Shown: positions 10,619-46,267 of the stretch, piece by piece
How positions within the stretch are numbered: the first letter of the stretch is position 1
How the letters are laid out: each line of letters begins with the position of its first letter
Assembly: GCA_036781185.1 (NCBI GenBank)
Contig: DAIQBL010000001.1
Coordinates: forward strand, 23,369-87,368
Length of the DNA stretch: 64,000 nt
Source: Thermoplasmatota archaeon
Lineage (GTDB): Archaea > Thermoplasmatota > Thermoplasmata > Lutacidiplasmatales > UBA184
Direction of reading: 5' to 3'
Notes under the pieces: model-generated
Databases searched by the model: none
Told to the model about the DNA's origin: nothing
Seen by the model: the letters and a program-made list of their open reading frames with translations, nothing else
Program-made: the position numbers and the translations under genes

Positions 10619-11554
10619 CTAGGGGCGAGCGGGGGCCGTGGGTCGGGCCGTCCCGGAAGCGACCCCGAGGGAGGTCGGGCTCACGGACTCGGTGGCCGGA
10701 TGCCCGTCGAGCCGGACCAATCCTTCCCGGACCAGGAAGAGGAATTCCCCCGTCATCGTGACCGCCATGACCCCTCCGAAGGCGAGCGTCGGGGCGAGGA
10801 GGTCCGGGGCCACGGCGAGGGCGACACCCGTGAGGCTCATCGCGAGGAACGCCCCGACGACGGGAGTCAGCACCCGGTCCAGCCCGGCGCCGCGGCCGGT
10901 CCGAAGCAGCTGGAGGGCCCCGATCACGGTCAGGGCCATCACGGCGCCCATCAGGCCCGCCCCCACCGGCGGGTCGACGGGGACGAACGGCGCCACGATG
11001 CCGGCGGCGGCGAGCCCGAGGAGCGGGTCGCGGACCCCGCGTGCCATCGGGATCCACAATAGGAGCGCGACCATCGCCGCGGCCATCGACCAGAGGAACC
11101 ACGCCGACGTCAGGGTCCCCGCCAGGACCGGCAGGAACCCCGGCGGGCTGCCGCCGGCGACGGTGAAGAACAGGCCCATCAGCACCTCGGCCGACGTCGC
11201 CATCGCGGTGATGGCGACCGGCCAGAACCAGCGGGTTCGACGGATCCGCCGGTCCTCGAAGACGATGAGCGAGATGAACCAGAGTCCCGGCGGGACGAGC
11301 ATCATCGAGTTGAACGTCATCAGGACGACGGTGTACGTATTCAGGTCCGGTTGCGCGAACGCCGCGAGGGCGGCCATCAGGACGCCGGAGCTGCCGAGCA
11401 GCGCGCTCGACCCGATCACCATCCGGGTGAGCGGGGGCAGCGGACCGGACCGCGGGACGATCTGGGTGAGGATGAACACCTCCGCGGCGACCATCCCGAG
11501 GGCGACGAACACGTACGCCGCGAGGTCGAGGTTGAGGACGAACAGCGCCGGCAC
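10619..11554 (-). CDS. Polytopic integral membrane protein, hypothetical
   Basis: 311 aa with about 9 predicted hydrophobic helices. Confidence 0.55.
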   Translation of the reverse strand: MPALFVLNLDLAAYVFVALGMVAAEVFILTQIVPRSGPLPPLTRMVIGSSALLGSSGVLMAALAAFAQPDLNTYTVVLMTFNSMMLVPPGLWFISLIVFEDRRIRRTRWFWPVAITAMATSAEVLMGLFFTVAGGSPPGFLPVLAGTLTSAWFLWSMAAAMVALLLWIPMARGVRDPLLGLAAAGIVAPFVPVDPPVGAGLMGAVMALTVIGALQLLRTGRGAGLDRVLTPVVGAFLAMSLTGVALAVAPDLLAPTLAFGGVMAVTMTGEFLFLVREGLVRLDGHPATESVSPTSLGVASGTARPTAPARP

Positions 11555-11662
11555 GGGACCGGCCGGCGGAGCGGGGCGCGGCTCAAGTCATGCGGGTACG
11601 AACGGGGCTCGCGCGCGGGGTCCACCGGCAAGGTTCTACTACCTCACCCGCATCGGGCCCTC

Positions 11663-12325
11663 GTGACGACCATCCGCGGGATCGACCGTCAGATTGCGCG
11701 CCGGCACCTGCTCCGCCACCCGTTCTACCAAGCGTGGTCGCACGGCGAGGTCCCGCTCGACACGTTGCGGTCGTACGCGGGCCAGTACTACCAGTTCGAG
11801 CGGAGCTTCCCGAAGTATGTCGCCGCCGCCTACGCGCGGGTCGACGACCCGGCGGGTCGACGCGCGCTCCTCGGCAACCTCCTCGACGAGGAGGGCCGCG
11901 ACCCCACCCATCCGGAGCTGTGGCGACGGTTCGCCGAGGGGCTCGGCGTTCCTCGGACCGAACTCGAGAAGGCCCCGACCCACCCGGCGACCCGCCGCCT
12001 GCTCGCGACGTATGAGCGGCACGCCGTGCGGGGCACGACGGGCTCGGCGCTTGGCGCGCTCTACGCCTACGAGTCGATCTTCCCGGAGGTCGCGGCGGAG
12101 AAGGCCCGCGGCCTCGCGAAGTTCTACGGCGTGACCGACGAGCGGTCCCTCGAGTTCTTCCGCGTCCACACGGTCGCCGACGTCGAGCACGCCGGGGCGG
12201 AGCGCCGGTTGATCGCGAAGGAGCTTACGAACGGTTCGGCCCCGCGCGTCGAGCGCGCCGTCACGGAGACGGTCGACGCTTGGTGGCGGTTCCTCGATCC
12301 CTTCGTCGGGCCGGGCGCCGGCTGA
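11663..12325 (+). CDS. Heme-oxygenase-like fold protein (TenA/PqqC/CADD-like iron-containing redox enzyme family)
   Basis: A GTG start gives MTTIRGIDRQIARRHLLRHPFYQAW...YAGQYYQFERSF...ALYAYESIFPE, which resembles the PqqC/TenA_C family. The upstream part of the track ORF is low-complexity. Confidence 0.55.
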   Translation: MTTIRGIDRQIARRHLLRHPFYQAWSHGEVPLDTLRSYAGQYYQFERSFPKYVAAAYARVDDPAGRRALLGNLLDEEGRDPTHPELWRRFAEGLGVPRTELEKAPTHPATRRLLATYERHAVRGTTGSALGALYAYESIFPEVAAEKARGLAKFYGVTDERSLEFFRVHTVADVEHAGAERRLIAKELTNGSAPRVERAVTETVDAWWRFLDPFVGPGAG

Positions 12326-12379: not shown

Positions 12380-13174
12380 TTAGGTCGCGTGCATCCAGGT
12401 GACGTTGAAGCTTGTCCCGTCCGGCGTCAGCGCGGACGTGGCCGCCTTGGTGTGAAGGGTGGTCGTCATGTTGATCCGCTGGATCGTCGACGAAGCGAAC
12501 CCGCCGATCACGTGGGTCGTGCCTCCGATCGTGGCTTCGTTGGTGTTCGCCACGTTCGTCTTGTCCTTGCCGAAGTGGGCCGTCCCGAAGTCGGAGAGCG
12601 GCAGCACCGAGCTGCTCGACGGAGCCTCGGCGATCCACTCGGCCGAGTGGTGCTTCGCCGTCGGGACCTTCTTCGAGTGGTGGGAGCTCACGCCGGTGGT
12701 CACGTCGGTGAGCGTGACGGTGAACCCGACGGTCGAGCTCACGTACTTCACGGACGCCTTCATCGTGTCCCCCGGGTGGACCGTGATGGGGAAGTTGAAC
12801 GGGAAGGCGGGGTAGAACTCGTACCAGGCCGAGTACACCGCGGTACCGCTGCTGCAGTCGGCCTCGGTCCCGGTCTGCTCGACCGTGTTGGAGCCGTCCC
12901 CATCGATCCCGACCCAGAACGAGGACCAGCGGTTCGCGGAGGTGCACGTCAGCGTCGGCTGGACCCACGACCCCTGCACGTACGTGACCTTGTTCGTCGA
13001 GCTGATCACGGCGTAGCCGGCCCAGTTCGAGCTGTGGGACGTCGGGTGGGGGCCGGAGAGGAAGAGCGCGTTCTCGGGGGTGACGACGGGTGTGACCACC
13101 ATGGTCGCCGCGACGGCGGCGGGTAGGACGACGATCGACACGAGGAGCATCAAGGCCGACAGATTGCGACGCAT
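12380..13174 (-). CDS. Secreted glutamic peptidase, G1/eqolisin (peptidase A4) family
   Basis: Signal/TM MRRNLSALMLLVSIVVL, then SNWAGYAV, FWVGIDGDG...VEQTG (Gln aligned to the catalytic Gln of scytalidoglutamic peptidase), YSAWYEFYP and SAEWIAE (catalytic Glu motif). Confidence 0.7.
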   Translation of the reverse strand: MRRNLSALMLLVSIVVLPAAVAATMVVTPVVTPENALFLSGPHPTSHSSNWAGYAVISSTNKVTYVQGSWVQPTLTCTSANRWSSFWVGIDGDGSNTVEQTGTEADCSSGTAVYSAWYEFYPAFPFNFPITVHPGDTMKASVKYVSSTVGFTVTLTDVTTGVSSHHSKKVPTAKHHSAEWIAEAPSSSSVLPLSDFGTAHFGKDKTNVANTNEATIGGTTHVIGGFASSTIQRINMTTTLHTKAATSALTPDGTSFNVTWMHAT

Positions 13175-13336: not shown

Positions 13337-14587
13337 ATGACGACCCGCGGCCGGCACGGGCTCGACGGACGTCCGCACGGCCTCCGAGGCAACCTTCTCG
13401 TGGCCCTCCTGATCGTACCCCTCCTGGTCGGGACGGCGGCGGCCGCCCCGGTCCGCGGAGCGAGCCTCCTCGTTCGGACGGACGCCGGTGCGATCTCGGG
13501 GGGTCACTGGTCGTCGACCCCTCCCCAGCGCGACGAGCAACCGGGCGCGCGGGCGTTCCCGGCCGTGACCTTCGACGTCACCGGCACGCTCGGGGTCGTC
13601 TACGGCGGCGAGGGACCGGGGGGCGCGGCGCTCAACGATACCTTCGCCAACGACGGCGACTTCCCGGGGGAATGGTCGGGTTTCTCCGACCACGTCGTCG
13701 GAACGCCGCCGCCCCTCATCGGCGCGACGATCGTGTACGACCGGCCCGACAGCGTGTTCGTGATGTTCGGGGGAGTCTTCGCCAACCACTCGGCGTCCGG
13801 CGAGACGTGGGAGCTCCGGAACCTGACGAACTGGGTCGAGGTCCCCTCGTCGAGCGGTGGCCCGCCCGCCCATGCCGGGGCGGTCCTCACGTACGACGCC
13901 GCCGATGGATACGTCGTCCTGTACGACCCGGCGGGGAACGGCTCGACGTGGAAGTTCCTCGGCGGCGCCTGGTCGCTCCTCCCGACTTCGACCTCCCCGC
14001 TCGCCCGGACCGGGCCCGTGTTCGCCTACGACCCGGCGGAGCGCGCGGTCCTCCTGTTTGGGGGGGCCTCCGCGACCGGCCCGCGCAACGACAGCTGGGA
14101 GTTCGCCGCGGGCCAATGGCGGGAGCTCCCCGGGGCGGAGCCGACCCCCCCGGCGAGCGCGGCCCCCGTCGGCACCTTCGATCCCCGGACCGCGGGCGTC
14201 GTCGTCTACGAGGGCGACGCCGGGGGGGTCACCTTCGAGTTCGCCGGCGGTCACTGGACGGCCCTTTCCGCAGGCGGTTCCGGAAGCCCTCCGGCCCGGA
14301 TCGGTGCGGGGTTCTACTTCGACTCGATCGTCGACTACGCCATTCTGTTCGGTGGAGAGGCGGTCGCCAATGCGACGGTCGTGTCGGACGTTTGGGGATG
14401 GAACGTTCCCCCACCCACGGTCGACCCGACCGTGACGCCCTCGGCGTTCCCCCCCGAGGAAGTGGGGCTGCTGGCCGCGGCCGTCGCGATCCCCGTGGTC
14501 GTCGCGTGGTGGCTCCGGCGTCGCCCGCCCCGCAAGCTCCCCGTCTCGGCGCCCCAGTCCGCCGCGTCGGCCGCGCCGGGCGGCTAG
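13337..14587 (+). CDS. Secreted Kelch-repeat (galactose-oxidase-like beta-propeller) protein with C-terminal membrane anchor
   Basis: N-terminal signal peptide, repeated VYGG/LFGG/MFGG plus W/Y-containing blades, N-x-S/T sequons, and a C-terminal LLAAAVAIPVVVAWWLRRR anchor. Confidence 0.65.
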   Translation: MTTRGRHGLDGRPHGLRGNLLVALLIVPLLVGTAAAAPVRGASLLVRTDAGAISGGHWSSTPPQRDEQPGARAFPAVTFDVTGTLGVVYGGEGPGGAALNDTFANDGDFPGEWSGFSDHVVGTPPPLIGATIVYDRPDSVFVMFGGVFANHSASGETWELRNLTNWVEVPSSSGGPPAHAGAVLTYDAADGYVVLYDPAGNGSTWKFLGGAWSLLPTSTSPLARTGPVFAYDPAERAVLLFGGASATGPRNDSWEFAAGQWRELPGAEPTPPASAAPVGTFDPRTAGVVVYEGDAGGVTFEFAGGHWTALSAGGSGSPPARIGAGFYFDSIVDYAILFGGEAVANATVVSDVWGWNVPPPTVDPTVTPSAFPPEEVGLLAAAVAIPVVVAWWLRRRPPRKLPVSAPQSAASAAPGG

Positions 14588-21823: not shown

Positions 21824-23350
21824 CTAGACGTCGAGGTACCGGTAGAACTCGTACGGGTGGGGCCGCAGGTTGAGCTGCAGCTGCTCGTCGCGCTTGATCT
21901 CCCGGAACGAATCGAGCACTTCCGAGTCGATCACCGGCTTCAGGAAGGCGTCGTCCGAGCTCAAGCACTCGAGCGCCTCGCCGAGCGAACCCGGCAGCTC
22001 CCGGATCCCGAGCTCCTTCCGGCGACCCGGGGACAGCTTGTAGATGTCGGCGTCGACGGGCGGCGGGGGCTCGATCTTCCGCCGGATCCCGTCGAGGCCG
22101 GCCATCGAAAGCGCCGCCTCGGTGAGGTAGATGTTCGCGGCGGAGTCCGGCGTCCGGTATTCGACGCGCTTCGCCGCCATCCGTCCCTTGTGGTAGAACG
22201 GGATCCGGACGTTCGCCGACCGGTTCGACCGGCTCCACGCGATGAACACCGGGGCCTCGTACCCCGGAACCAGGCGCCGGTAGGAGTTCGTGGTCGGGTT
22301 CGTGATCGCGCAGAGCGCGCGGGCGTGGGTCAGGAGCCCGCCGACGTAGTACCGGCACGTCTGGCTGACCTCGGCGTAGGAGTCGTTCGGGTCGTAGAAC
22401 GTGTTCGACCCGCCACTCCACAGCGACTGGTTCATGTGCATCCCGATGCCGTTGTCGCCGAACACCGGCTTCGGCATGAACGAGGCGACCTTGCCGTGCT
22501 GGGCGGCGACGTTCTTGATCACGAACCGGACGTCCTGGACGTGGTCGGCCGCCGGGACGAGCTCGTCGAACCGGATGTTGATCTCGCCCTGACCGGCCGT
22601 CGCCACCTCGTGGTGGTGCGCGTCCATCCGGATGTGGAAGTCGTCGGCGAGGATGTTGCACACCTCGCTCCGCATCCCCTCGAGGATGTCGTGCGGCGCG
22701 GCGCGGTGATATCCTTCCTTGAACCGGATCGACCCGTGGCCGTCCGCCGCGGCCCACGGAGCTTCCGCGCTCTCGATCAGGTATCCCGAGCCGCCCCAGG
22801 CGTCGCGGACCGAGTCCGCCGAGGGGAGGAGCTTGACCGAGTCGAAGACGAAGAACTCGATCTCGGGCCCCCAATAGGACAGGTCGTATCCCGCGTCGGC
22901 GAGGACGGTGTTGGTCCGCCGCGCGATGCCGCGGGGGTCGTGGCTGTACGCCTCCTTCGACGCACCGGTGAGGATGTCGCAGATGAACCGGGCCGTCCCG
23001 CCGTGCTCCGCGCCCCAGGGGACGACGCCGAAGGTCGAGGGGTCGGGCAGAAGGATCATGTCGGATTCAAAGATCTCCCGGAACCCGCGGACCGACGAAC
23101 CGTCGAGCTTCGGGATCCCGCCGACGAACGAGTCCTCGTCGAGCGTGTCCGTGGGGAGGTGGATGTGGTTGAACCCGCCGAGGAGGTCGGTGTAGAACAG
23201 CTCGACCCAGCGGAGCTTCCGCGCCCGGATCTCCTCCAGCACGCGCACGCCGTGTTCGGCCCTCGATACTCCCGGCACGCCCGCTACCGCCGACCGTTCC
23301 GCGACCGCCATCCGACGCCCCTCGGCGCTCGGGACGAAGCCCCGGTACAT
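21824..23350 (-). CDS. glnA: Glutamine synthetase, type I
   Basis: KPVFGDNGIGMHMNQSLW, NPTTNSYRRLVPGYEAP and SRSNRSANVRIP are unambiguous GS-I signatures. Confidence 0.9.
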   Translation of the reverse strand: MYRGFVPSAEGRRMAVAERSAVAGVPGVSRAEHGVRVLEEIRARKLRWVELFYTDLLGGFNHIHLPTDTLDEDSFVGGIPKLDGSSVRGFREIFESDMILLPDPSTFGVVPWGAEHGGTARFICDILTGASKEAYSHDPRGIARRTNTVLADAGYDLSYWGPEIEFFVFDSVKLLPSADSVRDAWGGSGYLIESAEAPWAAADGHGSIRFKEGYHRAAPHDILEGMRSEVCNILADDFHIRMDAHHHEVATAGQGEINIRFDELVPAADHVQDVRFVIKNVAAQHGKVASFMPKPVFGDNGIGMHMNQSLWSGGSNTFYDPNDSYAEVSQTCRYYVGGLLTHARALCAITNPTTNSYRRLVPGYEAPVFIAWSRSNRSANVRIPFYHKGRMAAKRVEYRTPDSAANIYLTEAALSMAGLDGIRRKIEPPPPVDADIYKLSPGRRKELGIRELPGSLGEALECLSSDDAFLKPVIDSEVLDSFREIKRDEQLQLNLRPHPYEFYRYLDV

Positions 23351-23430
23351 GAACTCTTGGCCGCCAAAATTGGACGTGCGTCCAGAAATAATCGATAGGC
23401 TAATTAGTTCGTGCGCAATTACCGATATTC
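23351..23430. promoter_or_regulatory. Divergent glnA/lrp control region with AT-rich TATA-like elements and a GGACG-TG-CGTCC inverted repeat
   Basis: The only AT-rich stretch locally (aaataatcgataggctaattagttcgtgcgcaattaccgatattc). A 5-2-5 palindrome ggacgtgcgtcc sits about 60 bp upstream of the lrp ATG. Confidence 0.4.
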
Positions 23431-23925
23431 ATGGGACGGACGTCCAGCCTCGACGGGCTCGACCGCGGCATCCTCGAGGAGCTCAACGTCGACGCGCGCC
23501 GCAGCCACCGCGAGATCGCGGAGCACCTGAAGGTCTCCCCGACGACCGTCGGGCTGCGGATCGAGCGGATGGAGCGCGACGGCATCATCCGCGGCTACGT
23601 GCCGCTGCTCGACGATGAGGCGCTCGGCTGGGAGCTCTCGGCCACCATCGGCATCCGGATCTCGAAGGGGAAGCTCCGGGAGGTCGAGGAGCGTCTCGGC
23701 AAGGACCCGCGGGCGTACGCGATCTACGACGTCACCGGCGACTTCGACGCGCTCCTCATCGGCCGGTTCCGCGACCGCCGGGACCTCGACCGGTTCGTCA
23801 AGCACGCCCTCCAGGACCCCCAGGTGGAGCGGACCAATACTCAGGTCGTGCTCAACCGGGTGAAGGAGGACCGCCGAGTGCCCATTCTCGGCCGCTCATC
23901 GGACCGCCCGGCGGGAAACGCATAA
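23431..23925 (+). CDS. lrp: Lrp/AsnC-family transcriptional regulator
   Basis: LDGLDRGILEELNVDARRSHREIAEHLKVSPTTVGLRIERMERDGII (HTH) plus a C-terminal RAM domain. It is divergent from glnA. Confidence 0.85.
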   Translation: MGRTSSLDGLDRGILEELNVDARRSHREIAEHLKVSPTTVGLRIERMERDGIIRGYVPLLDDEALGWELSATIGIRISKGKLREVEERLGKDPRAYAIYDVTGDFDALLIGRFRDRRDLDRFVKHALQDPQVERTNTQVVLNRVKEDRRVPILGRSSDRPAGNA

Positions 23926-23959
23926 GAGGCGCCGCCCGGGTGGCCGGCCGAGGACGCCG

Positions 23960-24781
23960 ATGGACTGGGGACTGCGGAACCGGATCGCCCGGATGTTCCC
24001 GGCCGCGTCCGGGAACTCCGTGATGCTCGCCGTCGACCACGGCTACTTCATGGGCCCGACCCGGAACCTCGAGAACGCGGGCGCCACGATCCGCCCGCTC
24101 CTCGCTCACGCGGACGCCATCGCGCTCACCCGCGGCATCCTGCGGACGTCGGTGCCCCCGGACTCGATGACCCCGATCATCCTCCGTGTCTCCGGCGGCG
24201 CGACCATCCTGAAGGAGGACCTCTCCGACGAGAGGATCACCACCTCGATGGAGGAGGCCCTGCGCCTCAACGTCTCCGCGGTCGCGCTCTCCGTCTTTGT
24301 GGGGGCCCCGCACGAGCACCAGTCGCTCGCCAACCTCGCCGAGCTCGTCGACGACGGGGAATCGTGCGGGATGCCGGTACTCGCGATCACCGCGGTGGGG
24401 AAGGAGCTCGAGAAGCGGGACGCGCGGTACCTGGCGCTCGCCTGCCGGGTCTCGGCCGAGCTCGGGGCTCACCTCGTCAAGACGTACTACTGCGACGGGT
24501 TCTCGAAGGTCGTCGACGCCTGCCCGGTCCCGGTCGTCGTGGCCGGGGGGCCGAAGCTCGACACGGTCGAGGCGGCGTTCGCTCTCGCCCACGGCGCGAT
24601 CGCCGATGGGGCCCGGGGGATCGACATGGGCCGGAACATCTGGCAGTCCGAGCACCCGGTGGCGATGCTGAAGGCGCTCCGGGCGATCGTGCACGACGGG
24701 GCGACGGTGCGCGAGGCGATGCAGACGTTCACCGACGCGTCCACCCTACGGGCCCCCGTCGTGCCGACCGCCCCGGCGTGA
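23960..24781 (+). CDS. DhnA-type class I aldolase (archaeal fructose-bisphosphate aldolase FbaB / ADH synthase AroA'-like)
   Basis: SVMLAVDHGYFMG...RGIDMGRNIWQ and the Schiff-base Lys region LVKTYYCDG are typical of the archaeal class IA aldolase family. Sequence alone cannot separate FBP aldolase from AroA'. Confidence 0.7.
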   Translation: MDWGLRNRIARMFPAASGNSVMLAVDHGYFMGPTRNLENAGATIRPLLAHADAIALTRGILRTSVPPDSMTPIILRVSGGATILKEDLSDERITTSMEEALRLNVSAVALSVFVGAPHEHQSLANLAELVDDGESCGMPVLAITAVGKELEKRDARYLALACRVSAELGAHLVKTYYCDGFSKVVDACPVPVVVAGGPKLDTVEAAFALAHGAIADGARGIDMGRNIWQSEHPVAMLKALRAIVHDGATVREAMQTFTDASTLRAPVVPTAPA

Positions 24782-24833
24782 GCGCGGCGCGGGCGCAAGG
24801 TTTCATATCTCGCGGCCGGTAGAACCGGCCCGC

Positions 24834-24918
24834 GCGGGGATCGCCCAGCTTGGTCAAAGGCGCCAGATTCAGGGTCTGGTCTCGTAGGAGTTCGTGGGTT
24901 CAAATCCCTCTCCCCGCA
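24834..24918 (+). tRNA. tRNA-Leu (anticodon CAG), long variable arm
   Basis: Folded by hand. Acceptor GCGGGGA pairs with TCCCCGC. D-stem CGCC/GGCG. Anticodon stem CCAGA/TCTGG with loop TTCAGGG gives anticodon CAG. A 14-nt variable arm with a CTC/GAG stem. T-arm GTGGG-TTCAAAT-CCCTC with one U-U mismatch. Discriminator A; CCA is not encoded. TATA-like tttcatat lies about 28 bp upstream. Confidence 0.8.
24897..24918 (+). repeat. 22-nt direct repeat, copy 1 (3-prime end of tRNA-Leu): ggttcaaatccctctccccgca
   Basis: Copy 2 at 25601..25622 is an exact match. Confidence 0.8.
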
Positions 24919-25050
24919 GTTTCCTATTATTTCTAGCTGTGTCAATCGGTGAATGCTGAACCGAGCTTGCTACGGAGGCTACCCAGCTCGCAACGCGCTC
25001 CATTCATGCATATAGCAAGCTATATGGATGCCATAGACCATGGATCGGCC

Positions 25051-25287
25051 ATGATCACGACCATCCAGCTAACCCCGCAGACCCGCTCCCGCCTCGCCGA
25101 ACTGAAGCAGAGTCCTCGTGAGTCCTACGACGAAGTCCTCACCAAGCTTCTTGCCCTTATCCCGGAGGGGGATGAGGAGGGGGCGTACACTCAGCCGTTC
25201 CGCGTCGCCCTACTTCGCTCCCGATTGGAAATTCGCGACGGCCGGACACTCCCCCACGCTCAGCTCAAGCGACGGCTAGGCCTCTGA
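25051..25287 (+). CDS. Antitoxin, ribbon-helix-helix/CopG-like DNA-binding protein (78 aa)
   Basis: MITTIQLTPQTRSRLAELKQSPRESYDEVLTKLLALIPEGDEEG. Its stop overlaps the start of the downstream RelE-like ORF. The start was placed at the internal ATG; the track ORF begins at an upstream GTG. Confidence 0.55.
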   Translation: MITTIQLTPQTRSRLAELKQSPRESYDEVLTKLLALIPEGDEEGAYTQPFRVALLRSRLEIRDGRTLPHAQLKRRLGL

Positions 25288-25538
25288 AGGCTTGGTCCAT
25301 CGTCTGGTCGGAGACGGCGGCGCGCGATCTCTCGGGTCTCGACCTCCCGGTCGCGAGACGGGTGGTCCGGAAACTCGAAGAAGCCGCCACTGACCCCGAG
25401 CGGTACTTCGAACGACTGGTCGCCACCGAGGACTCGAAGCTTCGGATCGGGGATTATCGACTCTTGGCTCTGCTCGACCGTTCGACCCGCACGATCCTGA
25501 TTGAGCGAGTAGACCACCGATCCCGGGTGTACCGGTGA
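25284..25538 (+). CDS. RelE/ParE-family toxin (mRNA interferase); no canonical start codon, possibly CTG-initiated or a pseudogene
   Basis: Hand translation of the frame overlapping the antitoxin stop gives (L)KAWSIVWSETAARDLSGLDLPVARRVVRKLEEAATDPERYFERLVATEDSKLRIGDYRLLALLDRSTRTILIERVDHRSRVYR. This is the classic RelE/ParE pattern (W-x-I-x-W...RIGDYR...HR). There is no ATG/GTG/TTG in frame between the upstream stop (25173) and codon 60, which is why the ORF track omits it. Confidence 0.6.
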   Translation: MKAWSIVWSETAARDLSGLDLPVARRVVRKLEEAATDPERYFERLVATEDSKLRIGDYRLLALLDRSTRTILIERVDHRSRVYR

Positions 25539-25600
25539 CCAGTGGCGGAACCCTGGGTCGGGACACGAAGGCTCCGTGCCATGGAGTCAAGTTCGGGATT

Positions 25601-25622
25601 CGAACCGCCGGGCGGTTCAAAT
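25601..25622 (+). repeat. 22-nt direct repeat, copy 2 (putative attR), embedded in an inverted repeat
   Basis: Exact match to the tRNA-Leu 3-prime end. The upstream flank ggattcgaacc is the near-reverse-complement of ggttcaaatcc. Confidence 0.75.
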
Positions 25623-25754
25623 CCCTCTCCCCGCATCGTCCTGGTATTCCGGCTCTTCCAATTGGTACGCCCTGAACCGGGCCGGCCCTCGGAGCCGCCG
25701 ATCCGTCTCGAATGAGGGGTCGGGGCCTCGCGGAACGTCCTCGGCGGTCCGCGA

Positions 25755-26543
25755 TCAGGGCCCCGCGGACTTCCAGGTCACCTTGAACGTCTTGCCGCCG
25801 TTCGACAACGCGCTCGGCACCGCCATCTTCGTCGTGGTCGATGCTTTCAGCATCGTGAGGGCCTGGTTCGAGAAGCCGCTGATGGAGTGGCTGTGACCGT
25901 GGATCGTCGCGGAGGCGTTGGTGAACGTCACCGACCCGAAATCCGTGAGGCGCGTGCTCGTGCTCGAGATCTCCGTGATCCACTCGGCGGAGACCCGCAG
26001 CGCCCCGGGGTCGGCCACGTACTGGGTGACGTGTTTTCCGCTCGTGGTGTCCTTGAGGGAGAGCGTGAACAACTTGCTGGCCTTGCTGAACTGGATTTCC
26101 GCGTGGATGGCGTCGCCCGCCTTGATGGAGAGAGAGAACGTACCGGCCCGGACCGGAGCGACCTCGTACCAGGCGTAGTACTGCGGCGAGCCCGATTGGC
26201 AGTTCGTCGCCGTGCCGATCTCCTCGAGGGTCGTCGAAGAGGTCGCTCCGTCAATGCCGACAAAGAACCCCGCGTTCCGGGCGGAACTCGGGCAGGCGGC
26301 GGCGACCCCCGGCGCGTGCCAGCTGCCCTGGACGTCGGTCACGCCTCCGCCGGTCGTCGTGATGACGTAACCCGACCAGTAGAACGACGGGTGGTGGGTC
26401 GTTCCGAACACGGCGGCGGGAACCATCGGTGCTACCGAGGTGGTCGCGGCGGACGAGGAGGCGACCGCAAGGCCCGAAAGCCCCACGCCGAGAAGCGCGA
26501 ACGTGGCGGTCACGACCATCAGTCGGTGGCGGGTTCGGCCCAT
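25755..26543 (-). CDS. Secreted G1/eqolisin-family glutamic peptidase paralog with Glu in place of the catalytic Gln
   Basis: Signal MGRTRHRLMVVTATFALLGVGLSGLAVASS, then YWSGYVI, FFVGIDGATS...LEEIGT (Glu where paralog 12380..13174 has Gln), YYAWYEVAP and VSAEWITE (catalytic Glu motif). The start was set at the internal Met. Confidence 0.65.
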   Translation of the reverse strand: MGRTRHRLMVVTATFALLGVGLSGLAVASSSAATTSVAPMVPAAVFGTTHHPSFYWSGYVITTTGGGVTDVQGSWHAPGVAAACPSSARNAGFFVGIDGATSSTTLEEIGTATNCQSGSPQYYAWYEVAPVRAGTFSLSIKAGDAIHAEIQFSKASKLFTLSLKDTTSGKHVTQYVADPGALRVSAEWITEISSTSTRLTDFGSVTFTNASATIHGHSHSISGFSNQALTMLKASTTTKMAVPSALSNGGKTFKVTWKSAGP

Positions 26544-26985
26544 GGACACTCCCGCGGGGCCAACGGAGAAGCCCCGTTTAAATCCGCGTTCGACCCGGGC
26601 CCATTCTCCGGGCCGACGGAATCCGAGTCCTCGCGCCGGGTTGGGAACCGGCGCCCGGCCGGTGAGACCACCCGGAGCCGCGGACCGGAACTCCGCGTCG
26701 AGTCGGCCCATTAATCCTGGTCCGTCGGGCCACGCTCCGGAGCTTCGGCTGACGGGGGATCAGGCCGCCCGCGCAGGATCGGACAGGGTCCGCCGCCGAG
26801 CAATGACCGTCGGTGCCGGCCGGCGGGTCCCGGACCGTCGCCCGCGGCCGGTCGGTCGCAGCGACTCCTCCCCCGACGAGACCGAACGTGCGGGGGTTAT
26901 ACAGCAGCCGGGAGAATATCCGCAACAAGCGAGGTGACGCGGACGGACACCCGGCTCCTGAGCCGGCCCGGTTCGCCCCGCTCTC

Positions 26986-28032
26986 ATGGGGAACAAGCTA
27001 GCGAGCGCCCGTCGGCCGCGGTGGAAGCGGTCCGGTCCTGGGGGACACCTCGTCTCCGCCCTGTCTCCGGCCCTGCTCGTCGGGTTGCTGGGCCTCGCCG
27101 GGGTGACCACCGGGTATCCGACCCCACTGCCAGCGCAATCCTCGCCCGCCCTCCCCGCTCAATCCGCGGGCAACTTCTCGCTCGCCGCCGTGACCTACCC
27201 GACGGCGATTCGGCACGTGATCGTCGTGATGGAGGAGAATCACGACCTCGTGTGGACCCTGACGAACCCGGCCTTCCTCTCGCTCTACTCGCATAGTGCC
27301 CACGCCACCCGGGCATACGCGATCTGCCACCCGTCGGCGCCGAACTACATCGCGATCAGCAGCGCGGTCGACCAACGGTGCGGCTCGGACCGGGTCACGT
27401 ACCTCAAGGCGACCAACCTCGCGAGCGACGCGGCGAGCCACTCGGTCTCCTGGCAGGGGCTGTTCGAGTCGATGCCGTCCGCGTGCGACCGTACCGACGC
27501 CTACCCGTACATCGCCCACCACAATCCGTGGGTCTACTATTCCGACCTGAAGTCGACATGCGCGGCCCACGACCTGTCGTTCTTCACGCCGACCGGGGCG
27601 TCACGGCTGCAACTCGAGCTGAACGGCTCCACGCTGCCCGCCCTGACGTACATCTCCCCGAACATGCTGCACGACGCCCACGACGGTTCGCTTGCCGCCG
27701 CCTACAGCTGGCTCGCGAAGTACGTCCTGCATCCGGTGCACGCCTCCTCAACGTACGCTCCGACGACGGCAGTGATCGTGCTGTTCGACGAGGCGTACAA
27801 GCAGAGCTGCCGATGCTCGGAAGGCGGGGGGTACACCGCCGGCACCATCACCGTCTCGGGCGGACCGATCTACCTCGTGGTCCGGTCGCCCGTGTCAAAC
27901 GGGACGGACGTGGTCACGGTGCACGTGACCGAGTTCAACGTGGTCTCGACCATCGAGTGGCTCCTCCGGCTTCCGTCCCTCGGACACCAGGACAACACCA
28001 AGTTCCCGGCGATGAAGTCGCTCTTCACCTAG
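26986..28032 (+). CDS. Secreted phosphoesterase-family protein (acid phosphatase/phospholipase C-like)
   Basis: Signal/TM LVSALSPALLVGLLGLAGV. HVIVVMEENHD, CHPSAPNYIAISS and AHHNPW are hallmarks of the phosphoesterase family. Confidence 0.7.
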   Translation: MGNKLASARRPRWKRSGPGGHLVSALSPALLVGLLGLAGVTTGYPTPLPAQSSPALPAQSAGNFSLAAVTYPTAIRHVIVVMEENHDLVWTLTNPAFLSLYSHSAHATRAYAICHPSAPNYIAISSAVDQRCGSDRVTYLKATNLASDAASHSVSWQGLFESMPSACDRTDAYPYIAHHNPWVYYSDLKSTCAAHDLSFFTPTGASRLQLELNGSTLPALTYISPNMLHDAHDGSLAAAYSWLAKYVLHPVHASSTYAPTTAVIVLFDEAYKQSCRCSEGGGYTAGTITVSGGPIYLVVRSPVSNGTDVVTVHVTEFNVVSTIEWLLRLPSLGHQDNTKFPAMKSLFT

Positions 28033-43670: not shown

Positions 43671-46267
43671 CCTCCGCCGCGTGGTTCGAGCCGCGCAGCG
43701 ACCACTGGTCGGGCCCGTTCCTCGACCGTCTTGCCTCGCTCGCCGCCGCCACTCGGTTCGGGACCGCCTGGCTGGTGGTCCGCCGGACCGGCCTCGCCGG
43801 GGCCGTGGTCCTGGGAAGCGACCCGGTGGCCCGGGACCTGATCGAGTCGGCCGCCAGCCCGTGGCCGGCTCGGGTCACCCCGGTCGGCCCGGCGGCGTTC
43901 GGGTCGCCCTCTCCGCTCGACGGCCTGGCGGCGTTGGCTCGCCCAGGATGGGGCTGGCGAACGACCGAGGCCGGCGTCCCCGCGCCGGACCGAGCAGCCC
44001 CGGACCGCGATCGCGTCCCTCCCGAACTCTCGGTTCCGCCCGGCGGGCGACAGTGCCACTGGTTCTCGACGGGCACCGGCCGGCTCGCGGTTCGTGTCCG
44101 AGTCTGGGCGCGGGCCCAACCGACCGCCGCCCCAGGGTCGCTCGCCCGGCTCGCCCTCGACGGGATCGAGACGTTCCGTCACGCGGGCGTCCCGGCCGAG
44201 CTCCGCGAGCTCCGGAACACGACCGGGCGACGGGAGGCGTGGCGGACCGGGCGGGTCGGCTCGTTCGCCTCAGGCCCGCTCGAACGCCTTCTGCCGGCCG
44301 TCGCGGCGCGGCTCGCCCTCGGCTCGTCCCCGCCGGTGCGGCTCGACGATTCGGCCGTCGGGCGCCACATCGTGGCGGTCGGCGCGTCGGGCGCCGGGAA
44401 GACGTCGTTCCTCGCCGACCTGGCCGCCGCCCGGATCGGGCGCGGCGGCGCGGTCCTCGCCATCGACCTGCACGGCGACCTCGCCCCCGCGATCGTGGCG
44501 CGACTGGCGCCGGCGATCCGGACATCGGTCGTCGCGGTCGACGCCGCCGGTCCGCTCGACCAAGTGCAGGGCGTGCGCCTCCTGGGAGGTCGGAATCAGA
44601 CGGCGGAGGATCCGGGGCCCGCGCACCTCGTGGCGGCCCTGAAGCGCCTCACCTCGGATTCCGGCGACGTCTACTGGGGGTTCCGACTGGAACGGACGCT
44701 CGAGGCGTTCGTGCGGCTCGCCCACGAGGAGGGCGGGGGACTGCTCGACGTGTACGAGCTCCTCACGGACGCCCGTCGGAGGGACGCCGCCCGTCTCACG
44801 ACGCGGGACCGAGCGCTGGCCAACTTTCTGGATGAGATCCCGACCCTGTTGCGGCGCAACCCCGAGTACCTCGCGCCCGCGACCGCGCGCGTCGCGAAGG
44901 TCGCTCTCGCGCCCCGAATCGCGCGGCTGCTCGACCCGGCCGGCCCCGGTCTGCCGGTCGAATCTCTTGTCGGGCGCGGACGGTCGATCCTCTGGCGGAT
45001 CCCGTTCGCGCAGCTCGGACCGGAGGCGGCCAGCTTCGCGGCGACGCTGCTCGTGGCCCACGCGTACTTCGGTCTCGCCGCGCTGGGCCCCGGCCGACCC
45101 GACGAGCTTCGGGTCGCGCTCATCGTCGACGAGGCCTCCGCGCTCTCCCCGCGCCTCCTCGCCGAGATCCTGTCGGAGGGCCGGAAATTCGGCGTCGGGG
45201 CGGTCGTGGCCACGCAGTATCCCGGGCGCCTCGCCCCGGAGGCCCGGGCCGCCGCGGAGGGCGCCGCGGGCACGCACGTCGTGTTCCGCGTCCCCCCGCC
45301 GGTGGCCGCGGCGACGGCGGCCTGGGCCGGCCTCGACCGGTCCGCCGAGGCCTGGCTGCCGGCCCTACCGGACGGCACGGCGGTCGCGGTCCGTTCCGGG
45401 GACTCCGGCTCCCGCGGCGCGATCCAAGTGGCGCGGGGACCGCCCGACGACCCGGCGGCCTGGGAGGAGGTGTGCGAAGCGAGCGCTCTCGCGGCGGCGG
45501 AGTCCGACGGGGAACCCGGCGACGTTCCCCGCACGGTCTCGGACGCCGTCATGTTCTCGCTCGCCGCGGGACTCGGCGACGCGGGCACCCTCGCCGCCCG
45601 GGTCGTCGGGGTTCTCGGAGAACCGGTGGAGCCGGCGGTCGTGAACGAGAGCCTCGTCCGTCTCGGGCGACGTGGCTGGGTGACGAACATCGACGGCCGG
45701 TTCGACCTCACGGACGCCGGCGCGCGGTATCTGGGGGTCGGGGCGCCCACCGGGGCGATCCGCGAAGGCGCGGAGCATCGAGCGCTCCTGTACCACGCGT
45801 TCGGGATCCTCGCCCGCCGGGGCGCCCGGCTGGAGCTGGTCCGGCAGGGGCGGTTCGACCGTCGGCTCCCGGACGCGGTCGTCCGGCTCCTCCCCCCCGG
45901 GGTCGGTCACCGAGGTCCGGCGGAGCTGGCCCGCGCGGTGGATGCGGCGCGCTCGACGTGGGCGTGGCGCTACTTTGGCGGACGAGACGTGGACGTCGAA
46001 GCCGAGGTGAGCGGGGCGCTGCGCCCCGACCGGGTCCGGCGCAATCTGGCGAAGGCATCGGACCAGGGTCATTTTGCCCTGTTCCTCGTCGCGGACCCCG
46101 CGCGGGCGCGACGGATCCGGACCGTCCTCGCCGAAGCGGCGGCGGGAATCGGGACCGCTCAGGTCTGGACGCTCGTCCGGGCCCGGGCGGCGTCGCCGTC
46201 GGCCGGCGAGGGGACGGACGGGAGCGGTGGGGCGGTCCGTGGCGGCAGCCCCCCGCCCTCACCGTAG
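43652..46267 (+). CDS. FtsK/HerA-superfamily P-loop ATPase (VirD4/TraG-coupling-protein-like or DUF87) with a C-terminal winged-helix and extra domain
   Basis: Walker A HIVAVGASGAGKTSF followed by AIDLHGD; Walker B RVALIVDEASAL; and GVGAVVATQYPGRL (TQ-P motif). GTG start at MPDGRVTSAAWFEP. No TM helix. The roughly 350-aa C-terminal extension includes MFSLAAGLGDAGTLAARVVGVLG (wHTH-like). Confidence 0.6.
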   Translation: MPDGRVTSAAWFEPRSDHWSGPFLDRLASLAAATRFGTAWLVVRRTGLAGAVVLGSDPVARDLIESAASPWPARVTPVGPAAFGSPSPLDGLAALARPGWGWRTTEAGVPAPDRAAPDRDRVPPELSVPPGGRQCHWFSTGTGRLAVRVRVWARAQPTAAPGSLARLALDGIETFRHAGVPAELRELRNTTGRREAWRTGRVGSFASGPLERLLPAVAARLALGSSPPVRLDDSAVGRHIVAVGASGAGKTSFLADLAAARIGRGGAVLAIDLHGDLAPAIVARLAPAIRTSVVAVDAAGPLDQVQGVRLLGGRNQTAEDPGPAHLVAALKRLTSDSGDVYWGFRLERTLEAFVRLAHEEGGGLLDVYELLTDARRRDAARLTTRDRALANFLDEIPTLLRRNPEYLAPATARVAKVALAPRIARLLDPAGPGLPVESLVGRGRSILWRIPFAQLGPEAASFAATLLVAHAYFGLAALGPGRPDELRVALIVDEASALSPRLLAEILSEGRKFGVGAVVATQYPGRLAPEARAAAEGAAGTHVVFRVPPPVAAATAAWAGLDRSAEAWLPALPDGTAVAVRSGDSGSRGAIQVARGPPDDPAAWEEVCEASALAAAESDGEPGDVPRTVSDAVMFSLAAGLGDAGTLAARVVGVLGEPVEPAVVNESLVRLGRRGWVTNIDGRFDLTDAGARYLGVGAPTGAIREGAEHRALLYHAFGILARRGARLELVRQGRFDRRLPDAVVRLLPPGVGHRGPAELARAVDAARSTWAWRYFGGRDVDVEAEVSGALRPDRVRRNLAKASDQGHFALFLVADPARARRIRTVLAEAAAGIGTAQVWTLVRARAASPSAGEGTDGSGGAVRGGSPPPSP

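Follow-up and report, generated by a model that had tools for sequence, protein, structure and literature searches.

Identification of two G1 family genes

The window analyzed here is the whole 64,000-nucleotide stretch of archaeal contig DAIQBL010000001.1 (assembly GCA_036781185.1, positions 23,369 to 87,368 of the forward strand). It contains two minus-strand genes, designated par1 and par2, that encode members of the G1 (eqolisin) family of glutamic peptidases, a family typified by scytalidoglutamic peptidase (SGP) and aspergilloglutamic peptidase (AGP). The product of par1 has the Gln/Glu catalytic dyad of the family, and par2 carries a glutamate at the position of the catalytic glutamine. 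The features of the two genes are as follows.

12380..13174, minus strand: par1, canonical G1 (eqolisin/Peptidase_A4) glutamic endopeptidase precursor of 264 amino acids, from the open reading frame (ORF) and Pfam PF01828
13106..13174, minus strand: signal-peptide-like N-terminus of par1, MRRNLSALMLLVSIVVLPAAVAA, with an Arg-rich start, a hydrophobic core and A-V-A, read from the sequence
25755..26543, minus strand: par2, divergent G1-family paralogue of 262 amino acids with the dyad Glu108/Glu187, from the ORF, PF01828 and an AlphaFold2 (AF2) model searched with Foldseek
26460..26543, minus strand: signal-peptide-like N-terminus of par2, MGRTRHRLMVVTATFALLGVGLSGLAVA, with A-V-A followed by SSS, read from the sequence
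26577..26582, minus strand: TTTAAA, a TATA-box-like candidate archaeal promoter approximately 35 nt upstream of the par2 ATG, read from the sequence

The matches of par1 (118.8 bits, E 2.8e-34) and par2 (113.8 bits, E 9.7e-33) to PF01828 Peptidase_A4 were each approximately 90 bits higher than the gathering score of 22.3 bits. PF01828 was the only family matched when the two proteins were scanned against Pfam, PF03080 (neprosin) being unmatched in both, and no NCBIfam model was found for par1 or par2. Among solved structures, significant phmmer E values were obtained only for AGP (1y43_B) and SGP (1s2b_A), at 5.8e-16 and 2.7e-09, respectively, for par1 and at 3.8e-13 and 1.4e-04 for par2. The motifs that an initial annotation of this DNA had quoted as hallmarks of the family are all present, as SSNWAGY, FWVGIDG, VEQTG, AWYE and AEWIAE in par1 and as SFYWSGY, FFVGIDG, LEEIG, AWYE and AEWITE in par2. 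Since the two proteins are only 36.5% identical, they are old paralogues and a recent duplication is disfavored. When the six-frame translation of the window was scanned with a local hidden Markov model (HMM), no third G1 copy was found.

The AF2 model of par2 was all-beta, with a mean predicted local distance difference test score (pLDDT) of 85.2 and a predicted template modeling score (pTM) of 0.79. Its best Foldseek match was SGP 2ifw_A (E 2e-13, template modeling score (TM) 0.82 on the target); the top matches were 2ifw_A, 2ifr_A, 1s2b and 1y43_B, and neprosin came next. On this model, par2 is predicted to share the two-sheet beta-sandwich fold (two seven-stranded antiparallel sheets) of SGP and AGP. 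The assignment to the G1/eqolisin family made in the initial annotation is thus borne out by the Pfam, PDB sequence and Foldseek matches. A lectin-like, non-peptidase family, which that annotation had named as the alternative, was rejected for par1 and par2: legume lectins were only distant matches (TM 0.25-0.35), far down the Foldseek list after SGP, AGP and neprosin.

Foldseek matches to the par2 model also included 8xai_B and 8pn5 (E approximately 2e-5 to 1e-3), two recently solved proteins, namely the Bacillus subtilis protease CPAVM1 and 'HC7' (Glu200Ala mutant with bound triglycopeptide). As these two entries illustrate, a growing number of glutamic-type enzymes is being recognized on this scaffold.

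Read by eye, both N-termini are basic at the start and contain a hydrophobic stretch of 15-20 residues as well as an A-V-A motif. The Kyte-Doolittle maximum (15 residues) was 2.76 at residues 7-21 of par1 and 2.26 at residues 8-22 of par2, and the AF2 pLDDT of par2 residues 1-31 was below 50. Both proteins are predicted to be exported, with putative cleavage sites in these segments; likewise, the TTTAAA element may act as a promoter from which par2 is presumably expressed.

Equivalence of the catalytic residues to those of SGP and AGP

The codons of the catalytic positions and of their neighbors were located as follows; canonical domains are the Gln/Glu domains of the homologue survey described below.

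12875..12877, minus strand: par1 Gln100 codon, equivalent to SGP Gln53 by phmmer and MAFFT/HMM alignments
12638..12640, minus strand: par1 Glu179 codon, equivalent to SGP Glu136 by phmmer and MAFFT/HMM alignments
26220..26222, minus strand: par2 Glu108 codon, GAG, at the catalytic Gln site (SGP Gln53) by the alignments; CAG is one transversion away
25983..25985, minus strand: par2 Glu187 codon, equivalent by the alignments to the catalytic SGP Glu136, kept
25971..25973, minus strand: par2 Glu191 codon, equivalent to SGP Glu140, kept; Glu in 382 of 383 canonical domains
26262..26264, minus strand: par2 Phe94 codon in place of the Trp of WVGIDG (SGP Trp39/AGP Trp B10); Trp in 381 of 383 canonical domains

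In phmmer alignments to both AGP and SGP, which have no gap in this block, Gln100 of par1 (VEQTG) and Glu108 of par2 (the second Glu of LEEIG) lie opposite the Gln of ILQTG; counted along the aligned chains, in which SGP reads E3, D43, Q53, W67 and E69, this Gln is SGP Gln53 and AGP Gln B24. The catalytic Glu of the AE(W/F)I block (SGP Glu136) is Glu179 in par1 according to the AGP alignment, the phmmer alignment of par1 to SGP ending upstream of this block, and Glu187 in par2 according to the AGP and SGP alignments. Between GIDG and the Gln site there is no gap in the par2-AGP alignment, and the 8-residue spacing is equal. The column assignment of the Gln53 and Glu136 sites was unchanged in MAFFT and profile alignments of 95, 249 and 415 domains. 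No alignment offered another Gln of par2 for the site, and its remaining Gln residues fall outside this strand. These findings clearly show that the residue equivalence proposed in the initial annotation, in which par1 keeps the catalytic Gln and par2 has Glu in its place while keeping the catalytic Glu, holds against both reference enzymes.

Trp87 of par1 occupies the position of SGP Trp39, where par2 has Phe94. Two first-shell residues of the par2 catalytic center are therefore altered (Gln53 to Glu and Trp39 to Phe). The remainder of the center is largely kept: Asp98, Trp125, Glu127 and Glu191 of par2 correspond to SGP Asp43, Trp67, Glu69 and Glu140, and the glycines equivalent to SGP Gly41, Gly44 and Gly55 are present, the mapping of the Gly8 site within SFYWSGY being ambiguous. 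Further differences from the canonical relatives are Asn to Tyr in SxNW, FYP to VAP after AWYE, and AEAP to TEIS after the catalytic Glu, followed by a shorter loop. We therefore regard par1 as a G1 acid endopeptidase of the ordinary kind that has already been annotated as such and is probably exported, as judged from its N-terminus. By the criterion of the catalytic Gln, par2 can be called a homologue of the family, but its being a peptidase is not demonstrated.

Reproducibility of the glutamate codon

An identical par2 protein was found in three further JGI (Joint Genome Institute) metagenome assemblies (L001-L003). The three contigs differed from the window at 1-6 positions over 2.4-6.8 kb, none of them inside the par2 gene, and represent the same population as the window. 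The exact 262-residue protein has also been deposited twice at NCBI (HLM69841.1 and HXQ94935.1), both times as 'G1 family glutamic endopeptidase [Thermoplasmata archaeon]'. The par1 protein is present there under the same name as HXQ94923.1, twelve accession numbers before HXQ94935.1 and apparently in one record with it. It follows from these entries that pipelines have already filed par1 and par2 as G1 peptidases, the dyad going unremarked. Taken together, the identical copies demonstrate that the Gln-to-Glu change in par2 is real and reproducible, and that par2 is a natural variant of the G1 family.

Frequency of altered dyads among G1 domains

To the survey pool contributed a word-indexed search with par2, an exhaustive search of representatives (4,749 proteins at E <= 1e-3, of which the best 150 were used), a search with par1 and a search with a second Glu/Glu protein. 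The pool comprised 407 distinct complete G1 domains, of which 383 had the Gln/Glu dyad and 18 were altered at the Gln position. Six of these 18, representing six lineages, had Glu at the Gln site. The catalytic Glu was kept in four of them, giving the Glu/Glu domains of par2, L007a/P0365, P0107 (domain 1) and P0176, and was also lost in P0096 and in domain 2 of P0109. Among the pooled homologues, Glu at the Gln site was shared by close relatives in none of the six lineages. Since the sample is skewed toward relatives of par2, the family-wide frequency of Glu at this site is lower still. There are thousands of close relatives of par1, and the 120 best matches to it contained two non-canonical dyads. 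When GTDB species representatives were scanned with a 5-sequence alignment, altered dyads occurred at only one Thermoplasmata metagenome-assembled genome (MAG) among 80 loci (L007a and L007b).

Changes at the Gln site were accompanied by changes at neighboring positions. Trp39 was lost in 13 of 18 Gln-altered domains compared to 2 of 383 canonical domains (Fisher p approximately 1e-18, uncorrected for phylogeny), and Glu140 was lost in 14 of 18 compared to 1 of 383. The loss of Trp39 is seen in par2, which keeps the equivalent of Glu140.

Relatives of par2 and their dyads

A neighbor-joining (NJ) tree of 244 sequences was computed without the catalytic columns. The 10-tip neighborhood of par2 held 8 of the 18 non-canonical sequences in this tree; its members included four Ala/Glu dyads (P0004, P0099, P0103 and P0105), Glu/Ala in P0096 and Leu/Gln in P0097, together with the canonical P0002 and P0003. 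Around par2, Gln was replaced by Ala, Leu or Val and the catalytic Glu by Ala or Gln, replacements that are predicted to be incompatible with catalysis. A finer, bootstrapped tree contained a degenerate clade of L007a, L007b, P0097, P0099 and P0105 (83%) and a canonical trio of L008, P0002 and P0003 (65%). A shared origin of the Glu in par2 and L007a is not claimed. A search for synteny of par2 with P0002 and P0004, the relatives nearest to it, found none. A C-terminal '...TWKSAGP' motif was considered as a subfamily marker and rejected, being common to 86 sequences across subfamilies.

Altered copies were found as a tandem pair in two Thermoplasmata genomes, with the residues at SGP positions 53/136/140 given in order.

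L007:1076-1840 and L007:2086-2925: tandem G1 pair with E/E/Y and A/E/Q
L086:5001-5804 and L086:6043-6888: tandem G1 pair with L/Q/S and A/E/Q

The gene order DUF3237, G1a, G1b, diphthamide synthase is conserved between these loci. Identity between the loci is 90% and 81% for the flanking genes, 69% for G1b and only 55% for G1a. The MAG of L007 also carries the canonical copy L008. As the G1a orthologues have E/E/Y at one locus and L/Q/S at the other, the dyad is plainly under selection no longer in that lineage and Glu at the Gln site is tolerated, not selected, and the persistence of intact altered genes in tandem indicates a non-catalytic role.

Other altered domains are fused to a canonical G1 domain.

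P0107, residues 59-281 and 289-510: two-domain G1 protein, altered domain E/E/G plus canonical domain
P0109, residues 16-246 and 241-458: two-domain G1 protein, altered domain E/A/A plus canonical domain
P0132, residues 2-197 and 207-477: two-domain G1 protein, altered domain Q/T/D plus canonical domain

Of the six lineages in which the Gln site holds Glu, two (P0107 and P0109) are thus domains joined to a canonical one. This arrangement suggests that the degenerate domains of P0107, P0109 and P0132 may be accessory modules to active ones.

Evolutionary rate of par2

In relative-rate tests with five outgroups, par2 had approximately twofold the number of unique substitutions found in each of its canonical relatives (P0002, P0003 and L008). 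The excess was seen in 15 of 15 comparisons and reached p < 0.05 in 12 of 15. The nearest known relative of par2 among 5.8 billion proteins is 51% identical to it, and par1 has relatives at 86% and 70%.

Host and genomic setting

For par1 as well as par2, the nearest homologues were found in Thermoplasmata MAGs with the names AcS and SubAcS and in a 'Candidatus Lutacidiplasmatales archaeon'. According to the sections of Sheridan et al. 2022 (PMC9287336) that describe them, the AcS and SubAcS MAGs were obtained from acidic Scottish soils, have a G+C content of 65-71% and represent habitats below pH 4.5. The G+C content of the window is approximately 72%. Remoter relatives belong to Streptacidiphilus, Kitasatospora and Acidimicrobiaceae and to MAGs from bog, fen and palsa. 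The host is most likely a Lutacidiplasmatales archaeon (Thermoplasmata) from acidic peat or soil, and the hint of an acidophilic host that the initial annotation had drawn from acid-active proteases is well supported by the soils of its closest homologues. G1 peptidases are already known in this order: the same sections of PMC9287336 list A4, S53 and thermopsin as its most prevalent predicted extracellular peptidases.

Around par2 (22001-28000) the G+C content is 0.66-0.70 compared to 0.72-0.77 across most of the window, and G+C at third codon positions (GC3) is 0.86 in par2 compared to 0.90-0.96 in most neighbors. Nearby housekeeping genes encode glutamine synthetase, an AsnC regulator, a DeoC aldolase, tRNA-Leu and a pseudouridine synthase. 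No obvious operon partner for par1 or par2 was found among the surrounding genes of the window.

Divergent from par1 lies a gene for a Kelch-repeat protein with a C-terminal hydrophobic anchor (13337-14587, plus strand). The locus of P0002, the nearest canonical relative of par2, is also beside very large Kelch/PKD proteins (L004:7063-12795). The Kelch neighbors of G1 genes may be a coincidence or may mark a recurring surface-protein neighborhood. Gene calls transferred from L001 place two small plus-strand genes between tRNA-Leu and par2, at 25024-25287 (87 amino acids, Pfam DUF7557) and 25362-25538 (58 amino acids, no family). On the other side of par1, the plus-strand ORF at 11351-12325 encodes a TenA/PqqC or haem-oxygenase-like 'iron-containing redox enzyme' whose domain starts at approximately residue 120. 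Its Arg/Glu-rich first 110 or so residues are probably untranslated, with the true start further downstream. Elsewhere in the window, ARAGORN called a tRNA-Pro(GGG) at 43770-43860 (plus strand; 91 nt, anticodon at position 30). It exceeds a standard tRNA in length and could be either an archaeal tRNA with an intron or a questionable call.

Discussion

Our findings identify in one archaeal genome a canonical G1 peptidase and an old paralogue whose catalytic center has changed at two positions. In par1, Glu179 would activate the hydrolytic water and the amide of Gln100 would stabilize the oxyanion. In par2, the G1 fold, the signal-peptide-like N-terminus and the substrate cleft would be kept while the catalytic center is changed at Glu108 and Phe94. 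We consider it most likely, with modest confidence, that par2 is a catalytically silent or severely impaired exported paralogue. It would be a pseudo-peptidase ('non-peptidase homologue') that folds, is exported and keeps a cleft able to bind peptides, one of several Thermoplasmata G1 paralogues that abandoned catalysis. This reading is drawn from the rarity of the variant, the absence of conservation of the Glu, the destroyed dyads of neighboring paralogues, the accelerated evolution of par2, the additional Trp39-to-Phe change and the behavior of the corresponding SGP mutant.

That mutant, Q107E in precursor numbering (Q53E), is completely inactive, as stated in the passage of PMC9343461 that cites Kataoka 2005. 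Mutation of Gln133 likewise abolishes the activity of AGP, and the swapped Q133E/E219Q enzyme is dead, according to the passage citing Yabuki 2004 in bioRxiv 10.1101/2022.02.22.481544. In the crystal structure of AGP, Trp B10, the equivalent of the residue lost in par2, hydrogen-bonds the catalytic Glu B110 (PMC8147669). Strict conservation of the Gln/Glu dyad in all G1 members then known, the few bacterial and archaeal ones included, was found by Jensen et al. 2010 (PMC3009609), and Stocchi et al. 2018 (PMC6154417) removed homologues without the dyad as presumed non-functional. SGP (MEROPS G01.001), AGP (G01.002) and Alicyclobacillus pepG1 resemble par1 and par2 in Pfam family, motifs, catalytic Glu, AWYE and GIDG. 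The dyad of SGP and AGP is the Gln/Glu of par1, whereas par2 differs by Glu for Gln53 and Phe for Trp39. Approximately 20-25 residues separate the signal-like segment of par1 and par2 from the first conserved motif, compared to a fungal preprosegment of approximately 55 (PMC6154417).

In lacking one dyad residue on a G1 fold, par2 resembles the 'non-peptidase homologues' of MEROPS G1 and the 'non-functional homologues' of Stocchi et al. 2018, which lack one or both and are routinely excluded from eqolisin datasets (PMC3009609, PMC6154417). Those filtered homologues are mostly fungal, whereas the altered copies described here cluster in Thermoplasmata. They form conserved tandem pairs or are joined to a canonical domain, and degeneration has gone much less far in par2 than in the others. 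The homologues nearest to par1 and par2 belong to the MAGs or the order of Sheridan et al. 2022, whose extracellular A4 (G1) peptidases were counted by Pfam and signal peptide; the passages of PMC9287336 that describe this count make no mention of catalytic residues.

Several observations weigh against a silent par2. Two canonical Gln/Glu sequences carry Phe at position 39, so that W39F alone need not be fatal. A Glu/Glu pair is functional at the equivalent positions of neprosin, a protein of the same fold (PMC9343461). The place of par2 in the tree, as sister to either the degenerate clade or the canonical trio, is poorly supported (bootstrap 38%), and the relative-rate test presumes that the chosen outgroups are true outgroups. 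Finally, of the columns conserved at 80% or more, par2 retains 38 of 42, which corresponds to the 29th percentile of canonical sequences, and of those conserved at 95% or more it retains 16 of 17; par1 equals the consensus at 42 of 42 conserved columns, and the bottom 5% holds most of the other homologues with an altered dyad. With its conserved residues retained, either the cleft of par2 is still under constraint or the change is recent.

The best-surviving alternative, which we regard as unlikely but deserving of serious consideration, is that par2 works as an acid endopeptidase through its Glu/Glu dyad, with a shifted pH profile or specificity. At low external pH, Glu108 could be protonated and donate the hydrogen bond that normally comes from the Gln amide, or Glu108 and Glu187 could pair around a water molecule as in neprosin and pepsin-like enzymes. 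Under this hypothesis par2 would be a living intermediate in which the G1 scaffold is switching from Gln/Glu to a neprosin-like two-carboxylate mechanism; W39F and a few neighboring changes would be enabling mutations, and the pH optimum or specificity would suit peat below pH 4.5. An active par2 is consistent with the retention of the conserved residues of active G1 enzymes except Gln53 and Trp39, the equivalents of Glu136 and Glu140 included, and with the intact ORF, the TATA-like box, the signal-peptide-like N-terminus and a typical codon GC3 of 0.86. The habitat of the host lineage, given as below pH 4.5 in the part of PMC9287336 cited above, also fits.

A precedent for an active par2 is neprosin (PF03080, a glutamate-class prolyl endopeptidase). 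Acid-active neprosin uses Glu188 and Glu297, which are bridged by water and occupy the positions of SGP Q107 and E190 in precursor numbering, and its E188Q mutant is inactive (PMC9343461). It resembles par2 in the beta-sandwich (7zva, 7zu8 and 7zvb; Foldseek E approximately 1e-5) and in having two glutamates at the Gln53 and Glu136 equivalents, as do Glu108 and Glu187 of par2 by the SGP/AGP alignment. In contrast, no sequence relationship between the two was detected, the identity in the structural alignment being 8-9%. The glutamates of neprosin are held by residues of its own (His134, Tyr136, Tyr214 and Gln173, with Thr186 also among those supporting the dyad), whereas the surroundings of the par2 pair are G1-like by sequence. 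The environment of the par2 dyad thus appears to be that of an eqolisin minus one hydrogen-bond donor, and although this architecture can accommodate a Glu/Glu dyad, merely substituting the residue in eqolisin surroundings would not suffice. SGP loses its activity through Q-to-E and neprosin through E188Q, so neither dyad can take the place of the other unless remodeling occurs as well. The remodeling seen in neprosin is absent from par2, which has instead lost the hydrogen-bond donor to the catalytic Glu. In addition, Glu at the Gln site is conserved in no lineage, and par2 evolves faster than its canonical relatives. These points argue for a silent or impaired par2 rather than an active one.

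It is improbable that par2 is a functionless gene being lost, with the Q-to-E and W-to-F changes as early lesions. Such decay would agree with the accelerated branch, the lack of a close relative beyond its own population among 5.8 billion proteins, the lower local G+C content of 0.66-0.68 compared to 0.72-0.77 elsewhere and a GC3 slightly under that of most neighbors. On the other hand, the ORF is full-length and free of frameshift or stop, the AF2 model is confident, and 38 of 42 conserved columns are intact despite only 51% identity to the nearest known relative. Moreover, related dyad-altered paralogues persist intact in synteny across genomes, which argues for a retained non-catalytic function. 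Lastly, although a single base separates CAG from GAG, a sequencing or assembly artefact is already refuted by the identical gene, present in two NCBI MAG records and in three other metagenome assemblies that are independent, and an alignment shift that would make another Gln catalytic is just as implausible given the equal 8-residue spacing in the ungapped phmmer alignment to AGP and the concurrence of the HMM and MAFFT alignments.

The initial annotation had described the variant as either inactive or altered in pH dependence. Its statements all withstood testing; this framing was right, and the evidence now leans toward an inactive or strongly impaired protein. Beyond that annotation, the present analysis adds the minus-strand orientation of the genes, the loss of Trp in par2, the group of paralogues with destroyed dyads and the Glu/Glu precedent of neprosin.

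No catalytic class of proteases has been studied less than the glutamic peptidases. If par2 is active, it would be the missing natural example joining the eqolisin (Gln/Glu) and neprosin (Glu/Glu) dyads, between which laboratory cross-mutants are dead, and it would provide a short list of enabling substitutions useful for acid protease engineering. If par2 is inactive, as we favor, acid-soil archaea would hold exported G1 pseudo-peptidases alongside true enzymes. Since automatic annotation labels all of them 'G1 family glutamic endopeptidase', extracellular acid proteases may be overcounted in these genomes.

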